A DNA stretch of 15,734 nt from a virus: the UHGV virus genome UHGV-0194232; one strand, written 5' to 3'. A program made the translations under genes and the position numbers. This document shows positions 1,005 through 15,734 of the stretch, in pieces. Position 1 is the stretch's first letter; every line of letters starts with the position of its first letter. A model generated the notes under the pieces. That model had not been told where the DNA came from and searched no databases. It saw only the letters and a program-made list of their open reading frames with translations.

Positions 1005-3416
1005 TCAGTCCGTCAGCTGCGGACAGTCATAAAACGTTTCTGATACTGATGCCGGGGACGGAAACTTCGTCATAAACGTCGACCGGCTTCCTGTCACCCG
1101 GTGGCAGTTTTTGAACAACGCGCTCAGGTTACAGCCTGCCGGGAATTTCTCTGTGAAAATATCGTTAATATCCATCTCCAGCGAATTACAGCCTGTAAAT
1201 GTGGCCATCAGGGAAATTGCGCTGGTTTGCGGAGCAATCAGGCCAGTCGGGATCCGGCGCAGCGCCACACACCCCTGAAACATTTTTTCCGGGTCGTTGA
1301 TCCTGCTTCCGGCAAACAACACCTCCTGAATTTCCTCCAGCGAAGCGCAGGACGCAAACAACATCCAGGTTCTGGTCAGACTGTTGCATCCGGCAAGCAT
1401 ATCGTCCGGCAGACGGCGAAGGGCTCTGCACCCCTTGAATGTCCCGACCATCGCTTTCAGCGAACGACACCCAGAAAGCATCCCGCCCCCGATACTCTCC
1501 AGCGACAGACAACCATCAAAAAGGTAATTGCACTGTTCGAGACGTACTGCATCCGCCAGCAGATTTTTCCCTGCTTTAACCAGATTTGTACACCCGCAAA
1601 ATACCGTCATACACGACGTCAGGTTTCTGGCGTTCATGAAAACAGCCTCTCCCACCGAAACCAGTGATGTACAGTTCTCAAAACACCGGTCAATCACCTT
1701 GCATTCCGGCAAACCGGCTAACAGGCGATCAGGTATATACTGCAACCCTGTACAACCACGAAACGTCATGGATAAGTTGCCAATACGATTTTTTATTCCG
1801 TCAAAATATCCCGCAGGCAACAGAGTGAGCCCACTGCATGACTCAAATGTCCGGTTAAAGGTTACCTGTAGCCGGTTTTCCCCTTCCCCCGGCAACAGTT
1901 CCGGCAGTTCCGACAGGGACTGACAGTTATAAAACGCCTCCGAAAGCGATGTTATTCTGCGGGTGGGGATACGCGGTGCCACGGCAAGTCGTTTGCAGCC
2001 ATAGAACGCCGATGTCAGACTTTCCAGATTTTCTGCCGGCTCCAGTAATCCCGCCGGCACTTCCGTCAGGGCTGCGCAGCCATAAAACAACTGAGAAAAA
2101 TTTGTCGCCATGCGGGCGGACAAAAACATCCCCTCCGGCACCACCGTCAGCCGGGTACAGCCATAAAACACGGCGTAAAACGACGTCACTGACGGGCAGC
2201 CGGCAAACAGATTTTCCGGCAAATCCGTCAGCGCAGTACAGCCACGAAACGCACGTGCAAACGTGGTGACCTTTTCCAGAGTGTCAAACGCCCCTGCATG
2301 AATTTTTCGCAGCGCATTCTGCGTGTTGGCAAATCCTTCCATACTGGTGCGGGTGCCACTGATTTCGATAATCTCAAGCAATGAACAGGTTACCGGTGAC
2401 GTACTTCGGTAGAACATCAGGCTTTCACAGTTCCTGACCGTCAGCGTCACTTCCTCCCCTGACGTCAGGGGGCGGGTGGCCATGACTGAATTCCCTGAAA
2501 TCGTGTAATCCCTGCCTGCCACACCATCGCCGTAATCAATGGTAAAATCGGTGTCTCTGCTGTCATCGATTAAGAACAGCGGTCTGCTCACACTGTCAAT
2601 GCGCACCACAACACGGGCTACCGCCACCACTTTTACAGCCAGCGTGGCAGCCACCCCGTTTGACGTCATGACACTCACTGTTGTGGCTCCGCACTGCCTG
2701 GCGGTCAGGGTGATGACATCGCCATCAACCTGTATATCAGCCACACGCTCGTCTGCCAGGTGGACAGTGAAGGAGCGGTCTTCGGCGATTAGTGGCAATA
2801 TCGTCACCTGTACGGACGCCGTTTCACCGGGTGCCAGTTGCACACTGTCCGGCGACAACAGGATCTGTGATGGCATGATTTTATTTTTCAGTTTTTCCGT
2901 CGCCGTCACATAACCATAACCATATCCGTTCCCCCGGCAGTTTCCATAAACGTGAATACTGAACCAGCTGCGCAGATTTTTGGCCCGTAGTACGGCATGT
3001 TTCAAATCCTGGTGGTCGCTCATCAGAACCGGCAGATCCTTCTGCTCCACATTCAGCCGGAAGGTATAAGGATCTCCCGGTGGCGTCTGCTCATACCACT
3101 CCACAATCTGCGACCGGAACGGACTGTCTGCCAGGGATTCATTCAGTGCGGCTTTTGTTCCCCTGTGACGATGGATATAGGCAGCACGTTTTATCGCTGC
3201 CCTTTTTTCCGCCTCTGTCCAGTGCTCATTCCAGGTATCCACTGACATTTCCCAGGCCAGCCATGGCAGCAATTCCGTCGGACATAAATCGGGATTTTTG
3301 ACATAGCGGATCAGACAGACCGCGATTTCCGCCAGCATATCACCGGCGGTACTGTCCACCACCCGCTCTGCCCGGCTGGCGCTGACCGGTAGTATGCTTC
3401 TGATTTTGTCATTCAT
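1005..3416 (-). CDS. I: Baseplate wedge protein, P2 gpI-like N-terminal domain fused to a C-terminal Ig-like domain plus BspA-type leucine-rich repeats (803 aa)
   Basis: ORF 1005..3416, ATG at 3416 overlapping the gpJ stop (ATGAATGA). The N-terminal ~175 aa align with recalled P2 gpI (NPDLCPTELLPWLAWEMSVDTW vs NPDTCPANLLPWLAWAFSVDRW; PPGDPYTFRL vs DPPGTFRL). Residues ~180-260 look like a bacterial Ig-like fold (LAPGETASVQVTILP...TVSVMTSNGVAATLAVKV). Residues ~340-803 carry about 20 repeats of an F-x-G-C-x-x-L-x-x-hP motif (AFRGCTALTDLP, VFYGCTRLTVVP, LFYGCAALTEVP, AFYGCKRLAVAP, AFYNCQSLSELP, TFRGCTGLQYIP ...). Confidence 0.85.
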   Translation of the reverse strand: MNDKIRSILPVSASRAERVVDSTAGDMLAEIAVCLIRYVKNPDLCPTELLPWLAWEMSVDTWNEHWTEAEKRAAIKRAAYIHRHRGTKAALNESLADSPFRSQIVEWYEQTPPGDPYTFRLNVEQKDLPVLMSDHQDLKHAVLRAKNLRSWFSIHVYGNCRGNGYGYGYVTATEKLKNKIMPSQILLSPDSVQLAPGETASVQVTILPLIAEDRSFTVHLADERVADIQVDGDVITLTARQCGATTVSVMTSNGVAATLAVKVVAVARVVVRIDSVSRPLFLIDDSRDTDFTIDYGDGVAGRDYTISGNSVMATRPLTSGEEVTLTVRNCESLMFYRSTSPVTCSLLEIIEISGTRTSMEGFANTQNALRKIHAGAFDTLEKVTTFARAFRGCTALTDLPENLFAGCPSVTSFYAVFYGCTRLTVVPEGMFLSARMATNFSQLFYGCAALTEVPAGLLEPAENLESLTSAFYGCKRLAVAPRIPTRRITSLSEAFYNCQSLSELPELLPGEGENRLQVTFNRTFESCSGLTLLPAGYFDGIKNRIGNLSMTFRGCTGLQYIPDRLLAGLPECKVIDRCFENCTSLVSVGEAVFMNARNLTSCMTVFCGCTNLVKAGKNLLADAVRLEQCNYLFDGCLSLESIGGGMLSGCRSLKAMVGTFKGCRALRRLPDDMLAGCNSLTRTWMLFASCASLEEIQEVLFAGSRINDPEKMFQGCVALRRIPTGLIAPQTSAISLMATFTGCNSLEMDINDIFTEKFPAGCNLSALFKNCHRVTGSRSTFMTKFPSPASVSETFYDCPQLTD

Positions 3417-4323
3417 CGGTTGTCTCCACCTTGTTCAGTGTGACTGAGCGACACCATGGAGCCTGCCCCATCACCGGAACAATATCACTGGCCGGCGATT
3501 TCAGTGCCACCGTAATCACCCCCGTCTGATGCAGGGCTCCGTCCATACCTGAGCAGGACGCCACAGAGCCAATCCGGTGCACACTGTCAGTGTAGGCCTG
3601 CAGCGCCTGGCGGGCATTTTTCATCACCAGTTCACCATCCAGCCCGTAGGGAATATGGATATCCGCCACCACATCGTAGGGAATAATTTCTGCCGCACGG
3701 ACGCTGACAAAATCCGTCAGGGGTCGAATTTCATCATCATTGACTGACGCCGCCACCTTATCCAGCAGGGGTTGTGATGCCGTACCATTTCCTGTACGCG
3801 CTAACACATAAAGAAAAACACGCCCTTCCTGTGAATGCGTTTCCGGTCCGTAGGCTTTCACATCCAGCACATCAGGATCGGCACTCTGTGCAAAATAGTG
3901 GTATGCGTTTCTCGCGCCTGCGGTGCTGAGTCGTGCCCATGACAACTGAATACGTTCGCGAAAAGCGTCATCATCTTCATACACCGCAGGCGTGGGCGGA
4001 ATAGTGCTGTCATCTGCCGGGGTAATCACCAGACGTTGCACCTGAAAATTCGCACCAATCTGATCCAGGTCGTTCCTCCGGGCGCTCGCAAGCAATACAC
4101 CCCGGACAGCATCATTGACCTGCTGGCGCATCAGCGCCACCCGAAAAGCCAGTGTCTCTGCCCATTTATACGCCGGATCGGATTCCACCAGGGCCGAAAA
4201 CAACGTGTCCAGCTCCTGATACTTCGCCACTATCTGAGTGACCAGCACAGCTGTGTCCGGCACTTCCACCGCATCCGGTACCGGTATCGCGGACAGATCA
4301 ATGATTGCCTGAGACGTTGCCAA
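3409..4323 (-). CDS. J: Baseplate assembly protein, P2 gpJ-like (304 aa)
   Basis: ORF 3409..4323 aligns over its full length with recalled P2 gpJ (IIDLSAIPVPD vs IIDLNQLPAPD; ITPADDSTIPPTPAV identical block). It starts with TTG at 4323, preceded by GAGGAG at about 7-8 nt; no in-frame ATG is nearby. Confidence 0.9.
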   Translation of the reverse strand: MATSQAIIDLSAIPVPDAVEVPDTAVLVTQIVAKYQELDTLFSALVESDPAYKWAETLAFRVALMRQQVNDAVRGVLLASARRNDLDQIGANFQVQRLVITPADDSTIPPTPAVYEDDDAFRERIQLSWARLSTAGARNAYHYFAQSADPDVLDVKAYGPETHSQEGRVFLYVLARTGNGTASQPLLDKVAASVNDDEIRPLTDFVSVRAAEIIPYDVVADIHIPYGLDGELVMKNARQALQAYTDSVHRIGSVASCSGMDGALHQTGVITVALKSPASDIVPVMGQAPWCRSVTLNKVETTDE

Positions 4324-4654
4324 TTTTTATCTCCTCGAGTCGAATCGTTTCCTGTGTCTCGTTGTTCACCCCAACAAGCGTCAGCCAGGCGCTTCCTTCT
4401 CCTGTCCATGTCACCTCCACCCGCCGGAGGGTCAGGCGGGGTTCCCAGCGCTCAAGGGCGGTTGCCGTTTCACGGACAATCCTCACCCGCGTAAAATCAT
4501 CCTGCGGGTTATCAAGCAGACTGAACAACCTGCTGCCGTATTCCCTGAGAAGTACCCGGCTGCCGACCGGTGTTGATAAAATATCGGTGACGGACTGACG
4601 CAGGTGTTCGTTACCGTGCAGATATCTGCCAGTGGCGGAATCAATACCAATCAT
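4298..4654 (-). CDS. W: Baseplate protein, P2 gpW-like (GPW/gp25 family), 118 aa
   Basis: ORF 4298..4693 contains ILSTPVGSRVLLREYGSRLFSLLD...ERWEPRLTL, matching recalled P2 gpW (ILRTPVGSRVMRRDYGSLLASMID...LKWEPRVTL). ATG at 4654 gives a P2-like length. An alternative GTG at 4693 overlaps the gpV stop (GTGA) but would place the hairpin/T9 tract inside the coding sequence. Confidence 0.75.
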   Translation of the reverse strand: MIGIDSATGRYLHGNEHLRQSVTDILSTPVGSRVLLREYGSRLFSLLDNPQDDFTRVRIVRETATALERWEPRLTLRRVEVTWTGEGSAWLTLVGVNNETQETIRLEEIKIGNVSGNH

Positions 4655-4663
4655 GAAATTTTT

Positions 4664-4690
4664 CCGAAAAAAAAACGCCGGTGCGGCGTT
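4664..4690 (-). terminator. Candidate weak intrinsic terminator or attenuator between gpV and gpW
   Basis: On the minus strand: a short GC hairpin (arms cgccg/cggcg at 4676-4680 and 4684-4688, 3-nt loop, extendable by two A:U pairs) directly followed by a run of 9 U (plus-strand A run 4667-4675). It sits immediately after the gpV stop codon. Confidence 0.4.
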
Positions 4691-5313
4691 CACATTTCCT
4701 GGTTAGGTTTACGGGTGGTTCCCCCGCTGTCGCCAGGGTGATCATGAGTATTATAAATTTCGCGAATTTTACTCATGCTACCGGTTTTGTCGGTGATCTC
4801 CTGTGAGGCACCGATATTGCCCAGAACCTGCGTATCGGCATTAATCTTCGTTTTTCCCTGCACAGTCAGGGTATCCGTGATTTCCACCGGACCGTCAAGC
4901 GTTCCCCTGCCGGTGATTTTATAGCTGCCGCCTTCAGCCAGCGTGATGGACAGGGCATTAGCCTGGCGGTCGTAACGGATCTCCGTTCCGGTATCAAACA
5001 AAATAACATGCTCGTGTTCACTGCCCGCCGGTACCGGAATCGCGTCAATGTTGGCCCCCGGATACACCCGACCATTACGCAGATCGCCCGCCTCCGATAT
5101 CACTGTGACCGCATCTCCTGGTGCCGGGTAATTACTGACCTGCATGTAACGCCCGGACTGCACCTGAATCCATGGCAACGGCGGCGAAAGCACATCTCCG
5201 ATATCCACCCGGACCATCACCGGGCTACCCGGGATCACCTCTTCCACCACGCCGCGACGGACCATGTCCGCCACCCTGCGGCGTAACTCTGCCACTTCAT
5301 CCGCCAGACTCAT
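4690..5313 (-). CDS. V: Baseplate spike / assembly protein, P2 gpV-like (207 aa)
   Basis: C-terminal HDHPGDSGGTTRKP matches recalled P2 gpV HKHPGDSGGTTGSP, and the N-terminal region aligns with the gpV start. ORF track extends to 5607, but the start was chosen at ATG 5313 (MSLADEVAELRRRVADMV) on homology and a GGAGGG Shine-Dalgarno upstream; the longer version would overlap the upstream gene by ~300 nt. Confidence 0.85.
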   Translation of the reverse strand: MSLADEVAELRRRVADMVRRGVVEEVIPGSPVMVRVDIGDVLSPPLPWIQVQSGRYMQVSNYPAPGDAVTVISEAGDLRNGRVYPGANIDAIPVPAGSEHEHVILFDTGTEIRYDRQANALSITLAEGGSYKITGRGTLDGPVEITDTLTVQGKTKINADTQVLGNIGASQEITDKTGSMSKIREIYNTHDHPGDSGGTTRKPNQEM

Positions 5314-5860
5314 CGCCAGTACCCTCCGCTTTCCAGATAAGACGATAATCCTGCACATGCTTTTTACCGGTTTCCGGTACTTTACCCAGCCAGACTTCCT
5401 GTAACGGCACACCTGCCGGAACCGCAAACGGATCTTCGCCGATCGGAATGTCCTGTTCAAAAGAAACACGGAAAACGATGTAGTCGTCCAGCAGCCGGTC
5501 GAAGGTATCCACCTCAGCATCGATAAAAACCGCCGGGTCAACGTTATCCAGCCCGAACGTGGCTCCATCAATCCAGTCAGATAAATCCATCGCCAGACAG
5601 CGGGCAAAAATCTGCGGTTTTGGCACGTTTTCCGTCTTCCCGGCCCGGTCTGTCACCACAAACAGATCGCATTTCAGCGTGACCCGTGTCTGCCCGTCGG
5701 CAAACTGAGCCTTGTCCCATCCGGGTACATCCACAAACACGGCAGGCGTCACCAGTTGCGTCACTTTTTCCGGGTACTCATCGGCATCTTCCACCCAGGG
5801 AATTTGTTTCAGACTGTCAATCACTGCCTGATGCCAGGTTCCCATCATCAATGGTTCCAT
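5297..5860 (-). CDS. Hypothetical virion protein (187 aa), possibly tail-completion / head-tail joining
   Basis: ORF 5297..5863; ATG at 5860 overlaps the upstream gene's TGA in a TGATG arrangement, with AAGGGG/GGAG upstream. Same strand and tight packing within the structural operon. No family recognised with confidence; only a weak resemblance to P2 gpR. The position matches P2 R/S just upstream of V. Confidence 0.55.
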   Translation of the reverse strand: MEPLMMGTWHQAVIDSLKQIPWVEDADEYPEKVTQLVTPAVFVDVPGWDKAQFADGQTRVTLKCDLFVVTDRAGKTENVPKPQIFARCLAMDLSDWIDGATFGLDNVDPAVFIDAEVDTFDRLLDDYIVFRVSFEQDIPIGEDPFAVPAGVPLQEVWLGKVPETGKKHVQDYRLIWKAEGTGDESGG

Positions 5861-6582
5861 CACTCCATCCCCTTAAATACCCGGAATTTCAGTTCATGCT
5901 CAAAATTTTTCAGGATCAGTGCTTCCGCATCCGGAAAAACAAAATCCTCTATACGGTTCAGCATGGCTTCATAAATATCAATTTCTGCTTCGCGCACCCT
6001 ACGTCGTCCGGATGCCTGCCGAACCAGGACAGTCTTACGCCGTGAAATGCGTCCGCTCCGGTTTTCAGACTCAAATTCATTAATGAAAGCCTCTTCACCT
6101 GACCAGGTAGTGACCGGTATTGCCTCTCCGGCAGGTTTAAAACGAATCTCCGGCGCTTTCCTGCGGCGGGAAGCCGGTGCAAAACGCCCCCGTTCATCGC
6201 GCAACTGATGGCGTTCGCCGCGTCGCCCCCCACTGATGCGTCCGCGCAGATCACGTACTTTGATGGCGTTCAGGCCAAACCACACCTTTGCCTCATCAAA
6301 CTCATCGCCATTTCGACGAATGACAAAAGCATTCAGGACACGGTTTTTGATCATTTTCTGGCTGCGTGGCGCAACCTGTTTTTTAAACTCTGCCATGGCC
6401 TTCATCCGCAGTGCGGACGCGGCTCTTTTCAGCGCCACACCCCAGGCTTTACGGATCTGACTTTTTGAACCACCCAGTTTCGCGATAATTTTCAGCACCT
6501 CATCCTCGTCAATATCGACGACGAGGTTTCGTGCCAGCCGTCGCTGCCGGGCACTGCTTCGCTCATGCTCTCTGACTGCCAT
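5860..6582 (-). CDS. Hypothetical virion protein (240 aa), Arg/Gly-rich basic centre
   Basis: ORF 5860..6642; first ATG at 6582 (MAVREHERSS...), which still overlaps the FII 3' end by 20 nt, with only a weak Shine-Dalgarno. Contains a strongly basic segment (RGRISGGRRGERHQLRDERGRFAPASRRRKAPE). No confident homolog recalled. Confidence 0.5.
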   Translation of the reverse strand: MAVREHERSSARQRRLARNLVVDIDEDEVLKIIAKLGGSKSQIRKAWGVALKRAASALRMKAMAEFKKQVAPRSQKMIKNRVLNAFVIRRNGDEFDEAKVWFGLNAIKVRDLRGRISGGRRGERHQLRDERGRFAPASRRRKAPEIRFKPAGEAIPVTTWSGEEAFINEFESENRSGRISRRKTVLVRQASGRRRVREAEIDIYEAMLNRIEDFVFPDAEALILKNFEHELKFRVFKGME

Positions 6583-6967
6583 AACGTTTACTCGGTCGGA
6601 CAGGGGCGGCAGGTGTACTTCTTCCGGGTTCTCCCCGCGCAAGAGTAATGGTAATCACACCATGACCCGCAGTACCCGACTCATCCCAGCCGGGATCGAC
6701 CACCTGGTAGGGTTCGCCGTGGATCATGACCCTGTCATATTTTTTCAGACCGGCGGCCCATGTGCTCCGGGTAAATAACACGGGCGCAGTATCACGAATT
6801 TCGCCACTGCCAGTGTTCATCCCGGTGTTATCTGCCGGGGCATCAAAAACGGCACGGATTTTTCTTTCCGTGCCGCCCGGATATATGCTGATTTCCGTCC
6901 CCATCGTATCCAGGATGATGTTATCCGCATCACTCATGGCCTGATCGAACAGATTATCAAACATCAT
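6563..6967 (-). CDS. FII: Head-tail joining (head completion) protein, lambda gpFII-like
   Basis: N-terminus MMFDNLFDQAMSDAD matches recalled lambda FII MADFDNLFDAAIARAD. Its ATG overlaps the FI stop (TAATG). Confidence 0.8.
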   Translation of the reverse strand: MMFDNLFDQAMSDADNIILDTMGTEISIYPGGTERKIRAVFDAPADNTGMNTGSGEIRDTAPVLFTRSTWAAGLKKYDRVMIHGEPYQVVDPGWDESGTAGHGVITITLARGEPGRSTPAAPVRPSKRYGSQRA

Positions 6968-7382: not shown

Positions 7383-8411
7383 TTATTTCACCTGAACCAC
7401 CACAAACGCGTCAGGATCCGGCAACACCATCAACGGCGCAGACTGCGTCATGGTATATTCGCAACCAGGATCACCCACCTCCAGCCAGTGTTTTGGATAA
7501 CGAATTGCAGAGGTGATCCCTTCACTCAGCGCCTGATTATCCTGAATGGCACCATAACAACGGACGCCTTCCGCCTGAGTATTCCCCAGAATCAGTGTAC
7601 CTTCCGGCAGATAACGCTGTTCATCCCCGTTTTCGTCAACATACGTTGTCTTCGCCACAACAATGGCCAGATCACCGTAATACCCCTTAAAAGAGACCAC
7701 TGAGCCCAGATCTTTCAGCGCGGTTTCCAGTTCCGATTTTGAACCACGACGGGTATCCAGTTTTTCACGGAAAAGCTTAAAGCCATTCAGCATACGCCAG
7801 ACCGTGCCATCCATAATCGCGATATTGATGGTCCCTGAGGCAAAATCGCAGTACGCATCCAGATCGTGCGTTGGATCAAAGGTGTCAGCATTCTGCTGTG
7901 ACCATTCGCGTCCGCCAGCCTGCGTAATGTTATTGACGGCAGAGCGCCCAAAATCCACTTCCACCGTCTCAAACTGTTCCCCGCTCATGGTGTACTTCCC
8001 CTGCAGAACGGCACTGACCGCCTGCATTTCTTCCACCTGCACAATCGCCTGCTCTTCCTGCTTCAGGTTGTCAGTCAGAATACGCAGGCGGCGGTAGGCC
8101 GGGTCATTAAGACGGGCCGGATCTTCCCCCGGCAGACGTTCCACTGCCTGCTGATAATCAAAGCGGTGTTTTGGTTTTACATAACCGGGACGTAACACGC
8201 GGGTTTCACCACCACGGCTGCGCAGCACTTTGCCTGACACCACCGGAGACACATACGCCGCAACCGGTGTTTTGCCGGTAATTTTATCCAGCATGACTTC
8301 CTGAGTATGGAAAGTGATCGTGCGACGAAAGAACAGCTCCAGAAACAGCGCACGAAATTTCACTTTCTGCTCGGTGTACCCGAGTAACTGACGCGTGGTA
8401 AATAACCCCAT
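7383..8411 (-). CDS. E: Major capsid protein, lambda gpE-like (342 aa)
   Basis: Full-length collinear similarity to recalled lambda gpE, including identical blocks AIVQVEEMQAVSAVL, LRPGYVKPKH-type motif, DTRRGSKSELETA and TQSAPLM. Length 342 vs 341 aa in lambda. Confidence 0.95.
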   Translation of the reverse strand: MGLFTTRQLLGYTEQKVKFRALFLELFFRRTITFHTQEVMLDKITGKTPVAAYVSPVVSGKVLRSRGGETRVLRPGYVKPKHRFDYQQAVERLPGEDPARLNDPAYRRLRILTDNLKQEEQAIVQVEEMQAVSAVLQGKYTMSGEQFETVEVDFGRSAVNNITQAGGREWSQQNADTFDPTHDLDAYCDFASGTINIAIMDGTVWRMLNGFKLFREKLDTRRGSKSELETALKDLGSVVSFKGYYGDLAIVVAKTTYVDENGDEQRYLPEGTLILGNTQAEGVRCYGAIQDNQALSEGITSAIRYPKHWLEVGDPGCEYTMTQSAPLMVLPDPDAFVVVQVK

Positions 8412-8480: not shown

Positions 8481-8816
8481 TCAGGCGTGGCTGATGGCAC
8501 TTCCCACAAATGCGTTGGCTTTTTTCACCGCATCCACAGAGTCAGGCCAGACCAGCGACTCAGTGGCAAACGTACCGCTTTTGTAGTACGTCAGTGTGGG
8601 TTCTGTTCCGGCAAGCGCCAGAGCCAACACGCCCACTGCCGTTCCGGCTTTCTGACCATCCCATGCCACCAGTTTGCCGGTGGCGTCATCCAGCATCAGT
8701 GGCGTCAGTGCAGGCGTGGCAGCACTGATACCACTGGTGGCTGTTGCGGTATGCGCCGGATCGCTTCCGGCAAAAATATGCACATCCGCGCGCTTTTCTG
8801 TGGTTGTTTTAATCAT
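8481..8816 (-). CDS. D: Head decoration protein, lambda gpD-like (111 aa)
   Basis: [22 protein letters not shown] and YKSGTF motifs are collinear with recalled lambda gpD. AGGAGA Shine-Dalgarno 8 nt upstream of ATG 8816. Confidence 0.95.
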
Positions 8817-8854: not shown

Positions 8855-9565
8855 TTACGGCATACTCATCAGCAGATCTTCTTCTCCGTGCCCGGCAGTT
8901 CCGCCTCCGGAAACCGCACTGGCAGCATGCTGTGCCATAAAGCGATCAAAAAGTGTTTCCTGTGACGGTTGCGATGCCGCCGGTGCGGCTGCCAGCAACG
9001 TTTTCGCCTGCGCCACCGTCATTCCCGGTTGTTCTGCCAGTGCCTGTGCAAGTTGCTTGCGCCCTTTCGCCTCCGGCAGCGCCATAATCTGATCGCCGAC
9101 ACTTGGAGAACCGGCAACCGGTGCCGCCGCCAGTAACGTTTTTGCCTGGTCAACGGTCATTCCCGGCTGTTCAGCCAGCGCCTGCGCGAGTTGTTCACGC
9201 CCTTTAGCTTCCGGCAACGCCATAATCTGATCGCCTGTGCCTGCAGCACCGGCAGCAGGGGCTGCCGCCAGAAACGCTTTCGCCTGCTCCACCGTCATCC
9301 CCGGTTGACCTGCCAGCATCTGTGCCAGTTGCTCACGCCCCTTTGCTTCCGGCAGCGCCATAATCTGATCACCCGTGCTGTCAGTACCGGCAACCGGCGC
9401 AGCTGCAAGCAACGTTTTCGCCTGCTCAACCGTCATTCCAGGCTGACCTGCCAGCATTTGCGCCAGTTGCTCGCGCCCTTTCGCCTCCTGACAATTCAGG
9501 ATCCCCATCACGCGCTGATTTTCCTGGGCCACCGCTTCAGCAACGGTGAGATTTTTAACAGTCAT
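8855..9565 (-). CDS. Nu3-like scaffolding protein, in-frame nested within the 3' part of C (236 aa)
   Basis: Internal ATG at 9565 (MTVKNLTVAEAV...) is preceded by a strong AAGGAG Shine-Dalgarno at about 5 nt. By analogy with lambda Nu3, which is translated in-frame from inside C. The region contains the MGILNC and GMTV motifs seen in the lambda C/Nu3 C-terminus. Confidence 0.5.
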   Translation of the reverse strand: MTVKNLTVAEAVAQENQRVMGILNCQEAKGREQLAQMLAGQPGMTVEQAKTLLAAAPVAGTDSTGDQIMALPEAKGREQLAQMLAGQPGMTVEQAKAFLAAAPAAGAAGTGDQIMALPEAKGREQLAQALAEQPGMTVDQAKTLLAAAPVAGSPSVGDQIMALPEAKGRKQLAQALAEQPGMTVAQAKTLLAAAPAASQPSQETLFDRFMAQHAASAVSGGGTAGHGEEDLLMSMP

Positions 9566-10471
9566 TGCATTCTCCTTCGTAACAGAGTCATTCAGTGCAG
9601 AAACCATCACTTCAACGGCATCTGCAGCATTAATCAGTTGATCAGCCAGGCCTGCATCAATGCCTGCCTGACCGTCATAAACGGCAGCCTCAGTATTCAT
9701 CACCGCCTCTGAACTCAGCCCCGTATAAAGCGCCACTTTGTCGACAAACATCCGGCGGGCCTCATCAATACGGCGCTGAAAATCTGCACGCACACCTGCC
9801 GGCAATGCCTGAATACTGTTGCCGTCAACCTTGTGCTGCCCGGAGTAAATCAGCGTGATATCCACCCCTTCCTGTGCCAGTTGTTTCTCGTAACTGGTGT
9901 GCGCCATCATCACACCAATCGAACCAATTTTTGCCGTCTGCGTGACCAGCCGACGCGTACAGGCTGCCGCCAGCAACATGGCGGCTGAACAGGCCATATC
10001 ATTACACAGCGCCCACACGGGCTTCTGTTCCCGCAGGCGGTAAATCATGTCAGCACAGTCAAACGCCCCGGCAGCCTGACCGCCCGGGCTGTCGATATCC
10101 AGCAAAATGCCGCGCACATCCGGATCATTCACCGCCATCTGAAGACGGGCCGTCAGGCCGTCATAGCCTGTCATGCCGGAGTAAGGGCGCAGGGTACCCA
10201 GTTTATGCACCAGCGTGCCGCTCACCGGCAGAATGGCGATGCCATTCTTCACCTGGTAACTCTTTGCCGGACGCTGACCGCCCGCCATATAGTCAGTCAC
10301 AGCCAGTTGCATACCATCAGCATCAAGCTGAACAGCCTGCTGAGGAACGGCAAGGCTGCCGGCCCCCATCTCTTTACCCAGCGCGCAAAAGAAAACCCGC
10401 GCATAGGCGGGTTCCAGTAAAAGCGGCTCATTAAATGCCATGGCGGCAATATGCGATAAATTACGACGCAT
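8855..10471 (-). CDS. C: Prohead protease / minor capsid protein, lambda gpC-like (S49 peptidase family), 538 aa with an expanded repeat-containing C-terminus
   Basis: N-terminal ~300 aa align with recalled lambda gpC (HIAAMAFNEPLLLEPAYARVFFCAL vs HIASMAFNEPLMLEPAYARVFFCAL; VTQTAKIGSIGVMMAH; ITLIYSGQHKVDGN). The ATG at 10471 overlaps the portal stop. It is about 100 aa longer than lambda C because of the tandem repeats. Confidence 0.9.
   Translation of the reverse strand: MRRNLSHIAAMAFNEPLLLEPAYARVFFCALGKEMGAGSLAVPQQAVQLDADGMQLAVTDYMAGGQRPAKSYQVKNGIAILPVSGTLVHKLGTLRPYSGMTGYDGLTARLQMAVNDPDVRGILLDIDSPGGQAAGAFDCADMIYRLREQKPVWALCNDMACSAAMLLAAACTRRLVTQTAKIGSIGVMMAHTSYEKQLAQEGVDITLIYSGQHKVDGNSIQALPAGVRADFQRRIDEARRMFVDKVALYTGLSSEAVMNTEAAVYDGQAGIDAGLADQLINAADAVEVMVSALNDSVTKENAMTVKNLTVAEAVAQENQRVMGILNCQEAKGREQLAQMLAGQPGMTVEQAKTLLAAAPVAGTDSTGDQIMALPEAKGREQLAQMLAGQPGMTVEQAKAFLAAAPAAGAAGTGDQIMALPEAKGREQLAQALAEQPGMTVDQAKTLLAAAPVAGSPSVGDQIMALPEAKGRKQLAQALAEQPGMTVAQAKTLLAAAPAASQPSQETLFDRFMAQHAASAVSGGGTAGHGEEDLLMSMP
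8978..9487 (-). repeat. In-frame tandem repeat, 138-bp unit (46 aa), about 3.7 copies, inside the scaffold domain of C/Nu3
   Basis: Protein unit ALPEAKGREQLAQ(M/A)LA(G/E)QPGMTV(E/D/A)QAK(T/A)(L/F)LAAAP(V/A)AG...GDQIM occurs four times. At DNA level the landmark gccataatctgatc recurs at 9083, 9221 and 9359 (period 138). Copies are about 80% identical by eye. Lambda C has a single copy of the corresponding segment. Confidence 0.85.
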
Positions 10472-12032
10472 CGCCTTTTCCTCCCGTTGTCTGTCGGATC
10501 TGCTGCTGAAACGTATCCTTTATCCAGATGGGGCGGGGAAGACCGGCAGCCTGTCGCTCCTGGCTTTCACGCAGTTGCTGGCGGAAAATCTCCTGATAGT
10601 CATCTCCCATCAGGGCCAGCTCCTTCTCGTATGTACTCAGGCCACCTTCAATACGCATCACCGCCTCCTGCACCTCCTTAAGGCCATCAATCGCCATGCG
10701 GCCGGCACCAATCCACTCGGCACGACACCACCCGGAACGGGCCTCCCAGAATGAGAAACGGGATTTCGGCGGGCGGATCACACCGCGAATAAGGGCTTCC
10801 TCCAGCCAGCAGGCAAACATCTGTGATGCCAGACGGCTGGCCACAAATTTTCGTTTCCCCATAAAATACCGCCACGACTCATTGGCGGATGCCCTGGCAC
10901 TGGAATAACTGACCTGTGAATAATCACGGGAAAGTTGCTCATAGGACACGCCCAGTCCGGCAGCAATGTAACGTAACAGCGCCTTTTCCAGTTCAGAGAA
11001 ACCATTATCCGCATTCTGTGCTGTCTGCAGATTCAGTGAATCCCCCGGATAAAGATGCGGAATACGAACCCCACCCATCTTTACCGTATTGGTGGCGTAA
11101 TAGCGCGCATACCCTTTCATGATGGTGTTCAGGGGATTTTTACCGCCATCTCCCACCCCGGCGATATATTCAAATGCTTTTTCCGAATCCAGTGTGGATT
11201 CAATCGTCGCGGCATACATCGCCCGCACCACCGCCGACTGCAGTTGCGTGGCCTGTAGTGTGTCGAGCATCTTGAGGCGCTCCATCACGGAATAAAACTG
11301 GTTGGCCCCGCGCGTCTGTCCGTCCTCCTGCGGCTGAAACACATGGATCATTCCCGGTCGCCCGGAGGGCAGCGTCGCCGCAATCCGTGTCCAGTTGCTG
11401 ACACCGTAGCCAGGCCAGTCATCGTCCTGAACATGATAAGCCATCGCCTTTCCGTGACGGTTGATTTCCACTCCGGCACGCATAAAACGATCGCCGATGC
11501 CATAACCGGGCGTGCTGACGCGCTTCGGACTGATGGTCTTGAATTTTGTTCTGAATAATGACGTGGATTCCGTATCCCATACGGGCTGGACAAAAATTTC
11601 ACCGTTAAAAGTATGGACCCCCACCCCTTCACGAATAAATTCGGTAAACGAGCGACGCCCTTCCACATCCATCGAACCAAATACCGGATCGCAATATTCC
11701 ATCCACGCCGCCTCCACATCTTCAATAAAGGCATGCGAATCAGCTTCTGACATCCCCAGCCAGCGCCAGTTGGGTCGGTAGCTCAGGCGAAACATGTGAC
11801 CGACGATATGGTCTTTATGAATTTCCACAGCATTTGCGGCAATACCGTTGTTACGGACCAGATCGTCCGCACGGGCGTTACCCAGCTGAATGGAAGGTAA
11901 GAGCGCCACATCAGCACTTTCCGGTGCTGGCAACCATTCAGCCAGTTGCCCACCGAATCCGGAGCCGCCGCCGGAATATCCCATACTCTGCCGCAAAGGT
12001 TGCCCGTGAAGATCCACCAGTCCCCCGCTCAC
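10461..12032 (-). CDS. B: Portal protein, lambda gpB-like (523 aa)
   Basis: Collinear with recalled lambda gpB (GGGSGFGGQL, GNARADDLVRNNG, FRTKFKTISPKR, DGQTRGAN, LRYIAAGLGVSYEQLSR, GRMAIDGLKEVQEAVM). Starts with GTG at 12032, with AGGAG about 8 nt upstream; overlaps the W stop. Confidence 0.95.
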   Translation of the reverse strand: MSGGLVDLHGQPLRQSMGYSGGGSGFGGQLAEWLPAPESADVALLPSIQLGNARADDLVRNNGIAANAVEIHKDHIVGHMFRLSYRPNWRWLGMSEADSHAFIEDVEAAWMEYCDPVFGSMDVEGRRSFTEFIREGVGVHTFNGEIFVQPVWDTESTSLFRTKFKTISPKRVSTPGYGIGDRFMRAGVEINRHGKAMAYHVQDDDWPGYGVSNWTRIAATLPSGRPGMIHVFQPQEDGQTRGANQFYSVMERLKMLDTLQATQLQSAVVRAMYAATIESTLDSEKAFEYIAGVGDGGKNPLNTIMKGYARYYATNTVKMGGVRIPHLYPGDSLNLQTAQNADNGFSELEKALLRYIAAGLGVSYEQLSRDYSQVSYSSARASANESWRYFMGKRKFVASRLASQMFACWLEEALIRGVIRPPKSRFSFWEARSGWCRAEWIGAGRMAIDGLKEVQEAVMRIEGGLSTYEKELALMGDDYQEIFRQQLRESQERQAAGLPRPIWIKDTFQQQIRQTTGGKGDAS

Positions 12033-12241: not shown

Positions 12242-14158
12242 TTATCCTCCACTCAGTGCAGCCGCAATTTCTTCCAGACTCATATCATCCTCATCCTGCT
12301 CATCTCTTCGTGCCCGGGCCAGTGCCTCAAGGTCCAGTTGCCATCGTTGAACTGAAATACGCAGGGCAGCATAGGCATATACCAGGCAGTCGAGGGCTTC
12401 ATTGCGTCGCCCTTTTTTATCCCACAGCAGTTTCACCCTGCCATTAACCACCTTCTCCACCAGTTCTTCCGCCACGATTTGACGCGCCTCTTCTTCCGAA
12501 AAAATGTCCGGGTTATCCGGAAAGCGGAAGGTATACGGGGCGGCTTCACTGGCAGAAACCACCGGCAGGGCAAAACGGGCGTACAGCATTTCCTTGACGG
12601 TATCGGAGCCCACCTCACACAAAAACACACCACGCTGGTTACGCTTTTTGGGCATGGTGATCACCGGCTTGCCGTACACCGATGCCCCTTTAATGGGAAG
12701 CACAAAAAAAGTGCCGTGTTTTCTGGAACGCTGATACACAATGTCCTGGTCAATACCACCGGTATCCCAGCAGACACGGGAAATGGAAATTTCAGTACCG
12801 TCAGCATGGCGGTATTTTTTCCGGATCACCGCATCAACACGTTTAAGGGTGTCCTCGTCTTCCGGTCGCCCCATGATAATTTGCTTGTCAATCAGAAAGG
12901 CTTCTTCGCCAGGAGCCCAGCCCCAGACATAAATTTCATAGCGATCTTTCTGGGAGTCGATCCCGGCGGTCAGGTAAACCACCCGCAGGGGAACCTGCGC
13001 GCCATAGTGACAGACCTTTTCCAGCAATAACTCGAAACTCAGCTTTTCTGCCACAGCCTCTTCATAGGGCTCCCCGAGTGTGGTGTTAATAAACGTCTTG
13101 ACGCCGTTCGGATCCTTCAGCGCATCCAGCCAGTCGTAGACAATCTGCACCCAGGTGGTGAACGGACTGTACGCCGTCCAGATGTGGTACGAGATTGAGC
13201 GTGGTGGCGGCATCTCCTCATCACCGGCGCTGTAAAATGTCAGGCCGTCACGCGTCCACATCCCGGTATTGTCACAAATCCAGCGTCCGTCGGTCTGGTC
13301 AAGTTCCGACTGCCGGATCACACAGCCATTATGTTCACACAGGTAATACACCGTTTCCGGTTTACCCTTCTCCCATTTCAGGCCAAACGGCGTCGCATCA
13401 TCGCCAAACTTCAGATACTGGGTCTCCCCGCAATGAGGGCAAGGGACATAAAACCGCATGAAATGCGCAGATTCATTCGTGGCTTTCTCAATCTGGCAGG
13501 AGCCTTTAATTTTTGGCGTTGAGCCGCGTATGGATTTAGGCCATACCGAGCCTTCGATACGTTTATCGCCAAGCAACGTCGGCGAACCTTCTTTTTCCAC
13601 ATCCGGTTCAAACGAGGAGAGTTCGTCATAGCAGACCACATCCACAGATTTTTCACGGTAGTTTTTAGCAGCGGCACCACCCAGGCACCAGAAACCCACG
13701 CCGGAGGAAAAACGCTTCAGGGTGAGTGTATTATCGCGGTGCTTTCTTCCGAACCATGGAGCCAGCTCCAGCAATGCAGGGACATCCCTTATCGTTGGCT
13801 CAACATGAGATTTCATGAAATCTTCTGCAGCAGAATCTGTTGGCTGAAAAAGCAGACTGTTACGGGATTTATGCTCAATAAAATAAGCCTCCACCCCCAA
13901 CAGCATTTTGGTGTAACCAACGCGCGCCGATTTAATCAGATTAACAGTGCGGATCCGGTCATTTCCCATGCTGTTCATAATGGCGATCTGAAACGGCAGT
14001 GTTTCCCATTGCCCGGGGGTATATGAAGACTCTTTCGGCAGATAATAATGTCGATCAGCCCACTGAACTGTCGTCAGTGGAACCGGAATATTGAGAGATA
14101 AAAGCCCTGTGACTATCGCACCGGCTGCATTAGCTGCCTTCTGTGCGTCTGAAATCAT
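12242..14158 (-). CDS. A: Terminase large subunit, lambda gpA-like (638 aa)
   Basis: Extensive collinear identity with recalled lambda gpA ([156 protein letters not shown]). Start chosen at ATG 14158: it has an AGGTGGA Shine-Dalgarno and gives a lambda-like N-terminal length. ATG 14200 (ORF track) has no Shine-Dalgarno. Confidence 0.95.
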
Positions 14159-14678
14159 CAATCCACCTGCCCACGTTTTCACCGGCTTTAGCTGCAACAT
14201 TGGAGGCTTTTGCGATTTCAGTTTTCACCACATCAAGGTGTGACGGTGAAATATCCGGATATTTACGCTGTAATGTCAGCGGCACTCGTACAAGTATTCC
14301 CGAAATCTCCTGAGCCACACGTTGCAGAATGAAGGTAAACAATTCCGTTTCCAGCACCAGCCCTTCTTCGCGGGCATTTTTCAGCTCCTGTGCGTCAGCC
14401 TGTGCTTTTGTGAGCCGGTAGCGTTCATAGTCAATGGTGCCGGGTTGTAAATCTGATTCTGCAGCCGCACGCAAGTCTTCCAGTTCTTTGCGGAGCTTTT
14501 CGTTTTCGATATCTTTTTCCCGCTGCGCATACCACTCAATGGCTTCTGCAGTATTGAACATGGCCTCGATGCCTTTGCCTCCCCCCGACAAAATTCTCAG
14601 CCCCTGACTTTGCCAGCCAGTGATTGTTCTGACATCGCACTCAAAAATCTCCGCCAGTTTCTTTTTGTTAACCTTCAT
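14130..14678 (-). CDS. nu1: Terminase small subunit, lambda gpNu1-like (182 aa)
   Basis: [12 protein letters not shown]...[10 protein letters not shown]...GGGKG...IENEKLR...[28 protein letters not shown] matches recalled lambda Nu1 nearly collinearly. ATG at 14678 with GAGGG about 9 nt upstream. The 3' end overlaps the A start, as in lambda. Confidence 0.95.
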
Positions 14679-14699
14679 GTCACACATCCCTCACAAAAA

Positions 14700-14812
14700 G
14701 AAGAAAGGATCTCAAAACGCTTTTTTCAGCGAAAAATTACCGCTGCCAGATCCTTTCTTTTTTTCAAGAAAATCATATTAAACAACAGGTTAGCCAGAAG
14801 AAGAACGGATCT
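14700..14812 (-). promoter_or_regulatory. cosB-like terminase binding region with three R-type repeats (R1, R2 inverted, R3)
   Basis: agaaaggatct (14702-14712) and its inverted copy agatcctttct (14748-14758), plus agatccgttcttcttc (reverse complement of 14797-14812). These are positioned like lambda R1/R2/R3 (CGTTTCCTTTCT, GAAAGGAAACG, CGTTTCCGTTCTTCTTCG) relative to the Nu1 start. The adjacent 19-mer GCTATTTATGAAAATTTTC (reverse complement of 14824-14842) is identical to lambda sequence just right of cosN, as recalled. Confidence 0.65.
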
Positions 14813-14853
14813 GCTTTTTCCCTGAAAATTTTCATAAATAGCGCGTTTTTGCG

Positions 14854-14865
14854 CGTACGCGTACC
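14854..14865 (-). other. Candidate cosN (predicted 12-nt cohesive end GGTACGCGTACG, minus-strand orientation)
   Basis: A gapless alignment anchored on the conserved GCTATTTATGAAAATTTTC block puts lambda cosN (GGGCGGCGACCT) onto this 12-mer. It is centred on a perfect 10-bp palindrome GTACGCGTAC, consistent with the two-fold symmetry of terminase nicking sites. Distance to the Nu1 ATG is about 180 bp, as in lambda. Confidence 0.4.
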
Positions 14866-15084
14866 CTCGGTGTTTCAGATTCCGGAAAGGACCCGCACAA
14901 ATGGGAGCGTTTATCATTAACATTTACAGATAAGATGACGTACATCATTGAAACGCCATTCAGCCATATACCGGCAGCATTCGTAGTTGCACTCCGTAAC
15001 TCTGCGACTAAGGTTAAAAACATGGCCCTCTTTTGCCACCGGCAAATCTTCAATGGATTTCCCCTGCCGGTTTTTTATTTCTCA

Positions 15085-15123
15085 CATTACAGCAGCCCCT
15101 TAGAGTGAAGGGCTGCTGTAATG
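15085..15123. other. Strong stem-loop (14-bp stem, 11-nt loop) directly 3' of the 130 aa gene
   Basis: cattacagcagccc (15085-15098) pairs with gggctgctgtaatg (15110-15123). A T-run precedes it on the plus strand (15071-15080), but no U-run follows it in either transcript orientation. Confidence 0.5.
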
Positions 15124-15127
15124 CCTG

Positions 15128-15520
15128 TTACTCACGAATCAGGCGAGCACTCTTACTATTCATTTCAATACGCGAATACTGCGGTTTACCATAAATGATG
15201 TCTGTCATTACGAACACCTCACCCGGCTGCAGTTCAACTGCACCTTCCGGTAATTTCATACCAGCAAATACCGGACAGCCCGGATGGCGATCATCTTCTG
15301 TTGCTTCCAGCATTGACTCACCAAACCACGCCGTTGTGGCGCGACCATCAGCAGCCTTGTAGTGGATCAAGTACTGGTTTTCGCCATCCGCATACTGCGC
15401 GCGAGCTTTAACCTCACCCCATTCATCACTGATGCGCATCTCCACCAGTTGTGACAGTTCAAACTTAAACGGAACAGCCACAGCACCAATTACCATTGGT
15501 TTGTCTTCTTTCTTTTCCAT
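15128..15520 (-). CDS. Hypothetical protein (130 aa) at the cos-proximal right end of the phage genome
   Basis: ORF 15128..15571; start chosen at ATG 15520 (MEKKEDKPMVIG...) because of an AGGAG Shine-Dalgarno 7 nt upstream; the upstream ATG at 15571 lacks one. Same strand as all other genes. No homolog recognised. Confidence 0.55.
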   Translation of the reverse strand: MEKKEDKPMVIGAVAVPFKFELSQLVEMRISDEWGEVKARAQYADGENQYLIHYKAADGRATTAWFGESMLEATEDDRHPGCPVFAGMKLPEGAVELQPGEVFVMTDIIYGKPQYSRIEMNSKSARLIRE

Positions 15521-15734
15521 TATCTTCTCCTGATATCGAAGCCCGTCACCGCCCCGGGCGCTGATCAACATTTGAGTTTTCGCGGCGACAGAAAGAATTT
15601 ATTTTATTGAGTAGCCACAAACACAGAATTTCATGCTTTCCGGACGCCGGCGCATCCTTCATTTTTCAGCAAAATATTCTGCTCTTACAGGCGATCAGTT
15701 CTGCATACACTGCCGAACACCGTCGACAATTTCA

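Follow-up and report, generated by a model that had tools for sequence, protein, structure and literature searches.

A gpI-Type Baseplate Subunit with an Exchangeable Ig-Like and Leucine-Rich-Repeat Arm in an Escherichia coli Prophage: A Candidate Accessory Adhesin

Introduction

In the contractile tail of phage E217, the baseplate has six triplexes, each with two J-like chains and a single I-like chain. The fibre docks on the latter, and this chain has been proposed to transmit the pull of the fibre to its triplex (PMC10329688). The corresponding proteins of phage P2 (gpI) and of the R-type pyocins (Tri2) are ~176–177 amino acids (aa) long and end there, whereas the I-like protein of E217, gp45, has 504 aa (PMC10329688). 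Here, a gene of this class is described from the virus genome UHGV-0194232, a stretch of 15,734 nucleotides (nt) that stems from an E. coli prophage and is referred to as the window. The gene encodes a protein of 803 aa in which a gpI core continues for 627 residues into an immunoglobulin (Ig)-like domain, a second all-beta domain and a leucine-rich repeat (LRR) solenoid; the same protein is on deposit as "phage tail protein I [Escherichia coli]".

Two further groups of proteins are relevant for comparison. Tandem repeats of the PARCEL/DUF285 type combine conserved hydrophobic with variable hydrophilic positions (Roske et al., 2010, PMC2996958), and the BspA and PARCEL proteins that carry them are bacterial and protist surface proteins and lipoproteins with secretion signals, whereas the array analyzed here forms the C-terminus of a virion protein that is assembled in the cytoplasm. 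In modular receptor-binding proteins (RBPs), such as P2 gpH, the lambda Stf fibres and tailspikes, identity declines steeply from anchor to tip, cassettes are exchanged at domain boundaries, and a distal module can be found on anchors that are unrelated to each other; all of these features are also found here. The present case differs from them in that a subunit of the baseplate wedge, and not the shaft of a fibre, provides the anchor. The distal part is a solenoid of LRR type instead of a trimeric beta-helix or fibre, and the arm is probably monomeric.

Architecture of the Extended gpI Protein

The gene is one continuous open reading frame (ORF) of 803 codons that starts with ATG and has no internal stop, as an earlier reading of the letters of the window (the sequence-only reading) had described, yet its strand has to be corrected to minus (Table 1). 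Its N-terminal part matches Pfam Tail_P2_I (PF09684) over the full model (aa 9–149, model positions 1–139 of 139, E 1.6e-35, 122.5 bits against a cutoff of 20.6) as well as the NCBIfam equivalog tail_P2_I (TIGR01634; 95.9 bits, cutoff 30.05). The family profile finds pyocin R2 Tri2 (PA0619, PDB 6u5b_0) at E 4.8e-19, and a Foldseek search recovers the same chain (E 4.8e-4, 27% identity). Plain-gpI relatives of 193–196 aa, which are 92–95% identical to the query across the core, are collinear with the extended forms to ~aa 176 ("...GYGYVTATEK"); beyond this point, plain gpI adds ~20 residues and ends, whereas the extended forms pass straight into the Ig domain. From its fit to the whole domain model and to a solved Tri2 chain, and from the J-I-fibre gene order, aa 1–176 is assigned as a complete, bona fide gpI core. 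Since the protein as a whole lacks the small, single-domain character of gpI (~176–200 aa), it is to be regarded as an extended variant and not as a typical member.

The domain that follows the core scores above the cutoff of Pfam Big_2 (PF02368; aa 185–255, 25.7 bits against 22.8). Its nearest solved relatives are the C-terminal Ig domain of lambda gpV (2l04, E 3.4e-11, TM 0.79 normalised to the target) and 7z47_G of phage SU10, and it is modelled as an Ig-like beta-sandwich. A Big_2-CBM56 structure (7quz) was also among the profile and Foldseek matches, but with a focused profile the match was confined to the Big_2 part and CBM56 was rejected. For the second all-beta domain, neither a family nor a solved fold was matched.

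The solenoid has ~16 coils overall, with units of 24–29 aa (mode 27) and the consensus F1-x-G3-C4-x-x-L7-x-x-h10-P11-x-x-h14-h15-x-x-h18-x-x-L21-x-x-h24-x-x-h27. At a lag of 27 aa, the self-identity of the protein is 0.205 (z = 12.2 against 500 shuffles; z = 8.0 at lag 54), the half-period of 13–14 aa that had been counted in the sequence-only reading is only weakly present (z 2.3–3.3), and the same test gives no 27-aa periodicity in aa 1–352. Pfam LRR_5 (PF13306) is passed by the isolated array (34.9 bits) and, by a small margin and with no single stretch significant, by the whole protein (30.7 bits against a cutoff of 27.7). For the PARCEL repeat model TIGR02167, the query reaches 28.3 bits and remains 1.7 bits below the cutoff of 30, which its Klebsiella homologues pass; among the homologues, P0022 reaches 47.5 bits and P0046 45.7 bits, and DUF285 is above its cutoff in P0022, P0044 and P0046 and was not reported for the query. 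The top PDB match in Foldseek is 4gt6, a BspA-type LRR cell-surface protein of a gut commensal (E 5e-7), with low TM-scores owing to the multi-domain query, and the family profile matches the BspA-type LRR structures 4fs7, 4gt6, 4h09 and TpLRR 6mlx. Each coil contributes two very short strands.

On these matches, the array is placed in the BspA-LRR_5/DUF285/PARCEL supergroup, with which it shares amphipathic tandem units of ~26–27 aa, the F-x-G-C-x-x-L signature, the 4gt6 fold and a horizontally mobile distribution. It departs from PARCEL proteins in two respects, as the dyad symmetry described for PARCEL coding DNA (PMC2996958) is absent from the ORF, and membrane or secretion targeting is likewise absent, the N-terminus being the gpI core and no signal or lipoprotein sequence. 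Positions 1, 3, 4, 7, 10, 11, 14, 15, 18, 21 and 24 of the unit form a scaffold of hydrophobic, glycine or proline residues that is kept between orthologues, whereas positions 2, 8–9, 19–20, 22–23 and 25–26 are hydrophilic, 10–40% conserved and flank the two strands of the coil; such a pattern would correspond to a constant solenoid with a variable surface. In every unit, cysteine stands at position 4, which like F1, L7 and L21 is buried and part of the scaffold, and 26 of the 31 cysteines of the protein lie within aa 341–803. The cysteine richness probably reflects the cysteine ladder of the BspA/DUF285 consensus and not disulfide chemistry.

An AlphaFold2 model built with 43 homologues has a mean predicted local distance difference test (pLDDT) score of 86.9, with values >90 for residues 180–803. 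Most of this architecture had been anticipated in the sequence-only reading, namely the gpI-like N-terminus to residue ~175, the Big_2-like Ig domain behind it, the cysteine-rich LRR array of BspA/LRR_5 type and the union of all three in one chain; profile searches, which return LRR_5 and Big_2 above their cutoffs, and the AlphaFold2 model bear this out. The count of ~20 repeats given there is revised to ~16 coils of a 27-aa unit, and the beta domain at aa ~266–352, between Ig domain and LRR, had been missed.

The Extension as an Exchangeable Cassette

The extension is a 1.9-kb cassette, which is present, absent or replaced where the gpJ and fibre genes are nearly identical. The prophage of E. 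coli A10 encodes a plain gpI of 196 aa, while its gpJ is 96.7%, its fibre protein 95.3% (full length) and its chaperone 89% identical to those of the prophage described here. In blastn against A10, homology ends at window position 2892 and restarts at 964, with 77 nt in A10 in place of 1,927 nt. Since this near-identical tail module lacks the insert, the arm is an add-on beside an unchanged conventional fibre. In megablast, 75 E. coli records matched, and 73 of them showed the same break, at query position 1888 (window position 2892).

Where the cassette is present, divergence increases along the chain. Among alleles of E. coli prophages, identity is 93–100% in the core, 41–73% in the Ig and beta domains and 30–56% in the solenoid. 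In the Klebsiella type (~1,008 aa), for which 36 distinct proteins were drawn from protein matches and IMG/VR contigs, the mean pairwise identities are 97.9, 87.1 and 72.2% for core, Ig plus beta and LRR, respectively, and the per-site entropy climbs along the chain from ~0.05 to 0.7–0.9 bits. The protein thus combines a conserved virion anchor with a highly divergent, exchangeable distal domain, as is characteristic of the RBP class.

The distal module is not tied to the gpI core. In an E217/Pam3-like metagenomic contig, the same Big_2, beta and LRR extension follows an N-terminus of the DUF2612/Phage_Wedge1 family (PF11041; protein P0044), encoded directly after Baseplate_J and ahead of a fibre gene. 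E217 gp45, which belongs to PF11041 too, resembles the present protein in its role class, in this gene position and in being larger than P2 gpI, but it has no LRR, and the PF11041 and Tail_P2_I cores are without detectable sequence similarity. An 890-aa Phapecoctavirus tail protein (Escherichia phage ukendt gp231, L004 3895-6567) joins an RCC1-like propeller and Big_2 to a related C-terminal LRR; the gene of this lytic coliphage is located in a tail-fibre cluster, just downstream of genes for a tail fibre and a colanic-acid-degrading protein. Many uncultured-phage proteins of the same fold, labelled "BspA / 26-residue repeat", are contained in BFVD. The statement of the sequence-only reading that LRRs are not a standard receptor-binding fold of phages thus stands for characterised RBPs, but BspA/PARCEL-type solenoids recur in phage proteomes, including tail proteins of lytic coliphages.

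Conversely, the gpI core accepts other partners. Among the 1.84 billion cluster representatives that were scanned, 3,273 proteins match it, and 19 of the best 150 gpI-core cluster representatives have at least 380 aa. Some long homologues carry ConA-like lectin (Laminin_G_3) extensions (P0357, P0359), others Big_2 only or unassigned modules, and the C-terminus of gpI is thus a general fusion point.

Full-length fusions of 546–1,049 aa were found in E. coli, E. albertii, Salmonella, Klebsiella and Trabulsiella and on 48 IMG/VR contigs, the latter recovered with one scan for a degenerate FTIDYGDG DNA pattern. True homologues with the same four-part architecture are gp35 of the ICTV-classified Klebsiella phage ST16-OXA48phi5.4 (Peduoviridae, Reipivirus; NC_049450; 1,008 aa, 38% identity over 97% of the length) and E. 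coli WP_446907434.1 (861 aa, 55–56% identity), both of which have more coils and other variable residues than the query. A megablast search against the phage collection gave no match at the DNA level, and the homologues were found by tblastn. In Klebsiella prophages, the form is abundant, as clusters comprising 1,551 and 877 sequences illustrate. As a whole, the family is frequent in prophages of Klebsiella, E. coli and Salmonella, where it is annotated just as "phage tail protein I", and fragments of it are labelled "leucine-rich repeat protein" in databases. By megablast, this gpI type is present in 74 of 5,426 complete E. coli genomes.

In two of the related loci, a small, conserved ORF of 70–74 aa (phrog_11426) separates the wedge gene that carries the LRR from the fibre gene (L003 9003-9215 and L005 11448-11672); the carriers are Klebsiella phage ST16-OXA48phi5.4 and the E217-like contig. 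The ORF was looked for in the window and in the close E. coli relatives and is absent there, which distinguishes them from the Klebsiella and E217-like loci. Its product may be a chaperone or an adaptor.

Authenticity and Selection

The identical 803-aa protein recurs in assemblies of genomes and gut metagenomes from different samples, on no fewer than 24 contigs and always between gpJ and the conventional fibre gene in the constant order J-I-H-chaperone-sheath-tube, and the DNA of the gene was identical to the window in four of four independent contigs compared. The frameshift or assembly join near nt 2890 that had been named as a point to check is therefore not borne out, and this position corresponds to a domain boundary and recombination breakpoint.

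Two divergent alleles, with 99% (39 nt differences) and 69% identity (715 nt differences), keep the frame intact. The ratio of nonsynonymous to synonymous substitution rates (dN/dS), calculated per region by the Nei-Gojobori method for both alleles against the window gene, is 0.01–0.08 in the core, 0.25 in the Ig and beta domains and 0.22–0.32 in the LRR, which marks the extension as selected coding sequence. In the 99% allele, the ratio of nonsynonymous to synonymous codon changes is 1:19 in the core and 9:9 in the extension (Fisher p = 0.0025). The extension is thus under purifying selection, yet evolving several-fold faster than the core. In the 69% allele, dS is 0.31 in the core and 1.8 in the LRR, which points to a separate history of the cassette.

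Repeats at the DNA Level

The recurring DNA segments gccataaaaca/gccacgaaacg, from which a recombinational variation in array length had been suggested, are indeed enriched (8 matches against 2.8 expected), and six of them lie in the array, four at an exact spacing of 81 nt. They are, however, the reverse complement of the F-Y/R-G-C codons, the copies extend over only 11–13 nt, and repeats longer than 13 nt are 63–79% identical. Tandem Repeats Finder (TRF) detected no tandem array within the ORF, self-identity of the DNA at a lag of 81 nt is 0.35 against a background of ~0.27, and three inverted repeats in the ORF are short and distant. An orthologue with 56% identity in the LRR is likewise 803 aa long and can be aligned gap-free, and the size differences within the family (546–1,049 aa) lie between deeply diverged alleles. 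The repetitive character of the DNA is thus real, but the repeats are too short and weak for the proposed length variation, with the length of 803 aa being kept; recombinogenic DNA repeats were rejected on the repeat search, TRF and the lag-81 autocorrelation in favour of codon-level echoes of the protein motif.

Proposed Role of the LRR Arm

The most likely role of the arm, which is favoured with guarded confidence, would be that of an accessory, exchangeable adhesin for a strain-variable structure of the bacterial surface, tuning adsorption and host range. This reading follows from the divergence gradient, the presence or absence of the cassette, the reuse of the module and the variable hydrophilic positions on a hydrophobic scaffold. 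A second baseplate-mounted adhesin or host-range determinant beside the gpH fibre had already been proposed from the letters alone; the adjacent gene for a gpH-type fibre is confirmed, and the function is the best supported of those considered, on comparative evidence.

By analogy with pyocin R2 and E217, the core would occupy the place of Tri2 or the I-like subunit, once per wedge and alongside two copies of gpJ, so that six arms would project at the rim of the baseplate beside the six attachment points of the fibres. The two beta domains may serve as a stalk and the ~16-coil solenoid as the binding surface, presenting the variable hydrophilic face described above on an invariant hydrophobic and cysteine ladder. 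This face would bind a strain-variable bacterial structure, such as a polysaccharide or an outer-membrane protein. Such binding would complement the gpH-type fibre by greater avidity or by another possible first contact, and adsorption and host range would be tuned in this way. As the arm is covalently part of the subunit that is proposed to relay fibre pulling, one may speculate that its binding could also help to trigger contraction.

Several points weigh against an adhesin. A related extension was found by blastn in only one of 5,426 complete E. coli genomes, which makes the E. coli form rare. The overall dN/dS is below 1, which does not amount to positive selection, and the faster evolution of the extension could reflect relaxed constraint on a decorative domain. 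In myoviruses, the RBPs that have been characterised are trimers, in the form of fibres or spikes, whereas the arm would be a monomer with one copy per wedge, and a third binder would not obviously be needed beside the gpH-type fibre and the second fibre-like gene that full-length relatives have after gpD. In AlphaFold2, the core reaches only a moderate pLDDT of 55–68, a value in keeping with a subunit that takes up its fold against a pair of gpJ chains. In the literature searched, no functional study of any gpI-LRR protein was found, and mentions of LRR, BspA or DUF285 in phages are at the level of annotation.

Alternatively, the arm could confer non-specific stickiness, with the Ig domain and the BspA solenoid binding mucin, extracellular matrix or environmental glycans and thereby holding virions in gut mucus, where they would encounter more hosts, much as has been proposed for Ig-like decorations of capsids. 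Domains of this Ig-like class are reportedly regarded in general as mediators of weak, accessory carbohydrate binding, the nearest relative of the Big_2 domain is the C-terminal Ig domain of lambda gpV, several of the carrier contigs originate from gut metagenomes, and the family description names BspA-type LRR proteins as surface adhesins in host-associated bacteria, 4gt6 being the top match; the dispensability of the cassette would also fit. The very high diversity of the solenoid within one host species, which is repeated in Klebsiella, however, is better explained by an arms race with bacterial surfaces than by conserved mucins, and the arm sits on the baseplate by the fibres, while such decorations are usually found on the capsid or the tail tube, so that stickiness is considered unlikely, though not negligible. 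Rather improbable, too, is a structural or regulatory elaboration of the baseplate without external ligand, which would stabilise the periphery or hold and position the fibres, as with the extra domains of T4 gp7, E217 gp45 or the Cis12/Afp12 components of extracellular contractile injection systems. I-like and gp7-like subunits are enlarged elsewhere without being RBPs, as the 504 aa of E217 gp45 illustrate, LRRs are generic scaffolds for protein-protein interactions, the dN/dS below 1 is compatible with such a role, and the core has a weak similarity to the NCBIfam family CIS12_fam that is confined to aa 37–95 and remains far below threshold (23.6 bits against a cutoff of 860). Yet the near-identical tail module of A10 works without the arm, which is thus not structurally required; an internal partner among proteins as conserved as the fibre (95%) or gpJ (97%) would not account for a solenoid identity of 30–56%, and the same module is attached to unrelated anchors in phages with different baseplates.

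An artefact or a decaying fusion, that is, an assembly join or a pseudogene that arose when gpI lost its stop codon in front of a once separate LRR gene, would agree with the stop of plain gpI lying ~20 codons past the junction in relatives and with a breakpoint exactly at the domain boundary. With the protein identical on at least 24 contigs and the DNA in four of four, full-length fusions in the bacteria named above and on 48 IMG/VR contigs, an extension dN/dS of 0.22–0.32 and pLDDT >90 over aa 180–803, this explanation is effectively excluded. Going beyond the accessory adhesin, the LRR arm might be a fibre-independent sensor that is wired to the contraction trigger, so that six monomeric arms would, on binding a surface ligand, initiate or license sheath contraction themselves, or its ligand might, given the BspA-type fold, be mucin or epithelium; both variants are doubtful.

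Locus and Prophage Context

The features of the window are compiled in Table 1. All substantial genes lie on the minus strand, and the order V-W-J-I-H corresponds to that of P2, with the I gene directly after J and ahead of the fibre gene. The overlap of the gpJ and gpI-LRR genes suggests translational coupling. The ATG of the fibre gene is located 22 nt past the LRR stop and is preceded by GAGGTGA, a Shine-Dalgarno-like sequence; in full-length relatives, the fibre protein has 475 aa, and its gene is followed by those for a Caudo_TAP chaperone, sheath, tube, tape measure, gpU, gpX, gpD and a second fibre-like protein. The latter (L007 20377-21810, 477 aa, PF08400 phage_tail_N) implies that the phage has two fibre genes in addition to the LRR arm.

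Table 1. Genes, domains and cassette borders in the window (positions in nt)
Feature	Position	Strand	Remarks
Cassette	965-2891	minus	1,927 nt: Ig, beta, LRR, intergenic region and first codons of fibre gene; 77 nt in A10 prophage
gpI-Ig-beta-LRR gene	1005-3416	minus	2,412 nt, 803 aa; ATG 3416-3414; stop TGA 1007-1005
gpI/Tri2 baseplate-triplex core	2889-3416	minus	aa 1-176
Big_2 Ig-like domain	2628-2867	minus	aa ~184-263
Second all-beta domain	2361-2621	minus	aa ~266-352; near-invariant D-Y-G-D-G motif
Solenoid	1008-2354	minus	aa ~355-803; Cys-less N-cap (aa 355-389), 15 units, 9-aa terminal unit
Conventional tail-collar fibre gene, 5' part (gpH-like)	1-982	minus	ATG 982-980; PF12571 Phage_tail_fib; runs past window edge
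gpJ (Baseplate_J)	3409-4323	minus	last 8 nt overlap start of gpI-LRR gene (GATGAATGA)
gpW/gp25	4298-4693	minus	P2-type baseplate module
gpV-like spike	within 4690-5607	minus	P2-type baseplate module
Major capsid protein E	7383-8411	minus	lambda-type head module
Decoration protein D	8481-8816	minus	lambda-type head module
S49 protease/scaffold	8855-10471	minus	lambda-type head module
Portal	10461-12032	minus	lambda-type head module
Terminase A	12242-14200	minus	lambda-type head module
Nu1	14130-14687	minus	lambda-type head module
gpW, FI, FII-like attachment protein		minus	lambda-type head module

The prophage is a hybrid of lambda-type head and packaging genes (Nu1, A, W, B, C, D, E, FI, FII-like) and a P2-type contractile tail, and in the window taken together with the full-length relative L007 the baseplate genes precede those for sheath and tube. 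The S49 protease/scaffold gene contains a tandem DNA repeat at 8980-9488 (138 nt in 3.7 copies with 80% matches in TRF), which at the protein level gives repeats of 46 aa (ALPEAKGREQLAQMLAGQPGMTVEQAKTLLAAAPVAG) within the scaffold-like C-terminal portion of the protease. In contrast to the LRR array, this is a genuine repeat at the DNA level, and its copy number could be variable. Two of the mechanically called ORFs with TTG starts, both on the minus strand, are over-extended: in 4690-5607, the match to a gpV-like PHROG starts at aa 99, and related contigs call a gene of 207 aa, and 5860-6642, with 260 aa here, is called with 240 aa in relatives. Upstream of Nu1, the GC content falls to 0.44 at 14501-15571, a stretch that is plausibly the intergenic region on the cos/packaging side; an ORF within it (15128-15571, minus strand, 147 aa) has no Pfam match. 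Rfam and tRNA scans of the window gave no matches.

Implications

As a sequence family, the extended gpI proteins are already known from RefSeq and GenBank and from phage ST16-OXA48phi5.4. As far as the literature was searched, what is undescribed is the fusion of an LRR-type solenoid to the I-subunit of the triplex, its cassette-like polymorphism and its RBP-like evolutionary signature. The architecture is unsurprising in principle. It is concrete, widespread and testable, and it illustrates that the C-terminus of the triplex I-subunit takes several kinds of binding modules, with LRR, Ig-like and lectin-type (ConA-like) examples.

Provided that the arm acts as an adhesin, specificity in P2-type phages and tailocins would have a second determinant in the form of a cassette, and current host-range prediction and RBP catalogues would miss it because it is annotated just as "phage tail protein I". 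This is relevant for the prediction of host ranges of Klebsiella and E. coli phages and for the retargeting of tailocins, and given the abundance of the form in Klebsiella prophages, it bears on phage therapy against Klebsiella. An adhesin role would also provide a function and a tractable assay system for BspA/PARCEL-type solenoids, a large class of repeats of obscure function that recurs in phage proteomes. Should the doubtful fibre-independent sensor prove true, contractile tails would gain a new class of receptor-binding device, monomeric and built as a solenoid, which would also offer a ready-made handle for tailocin retargeting.

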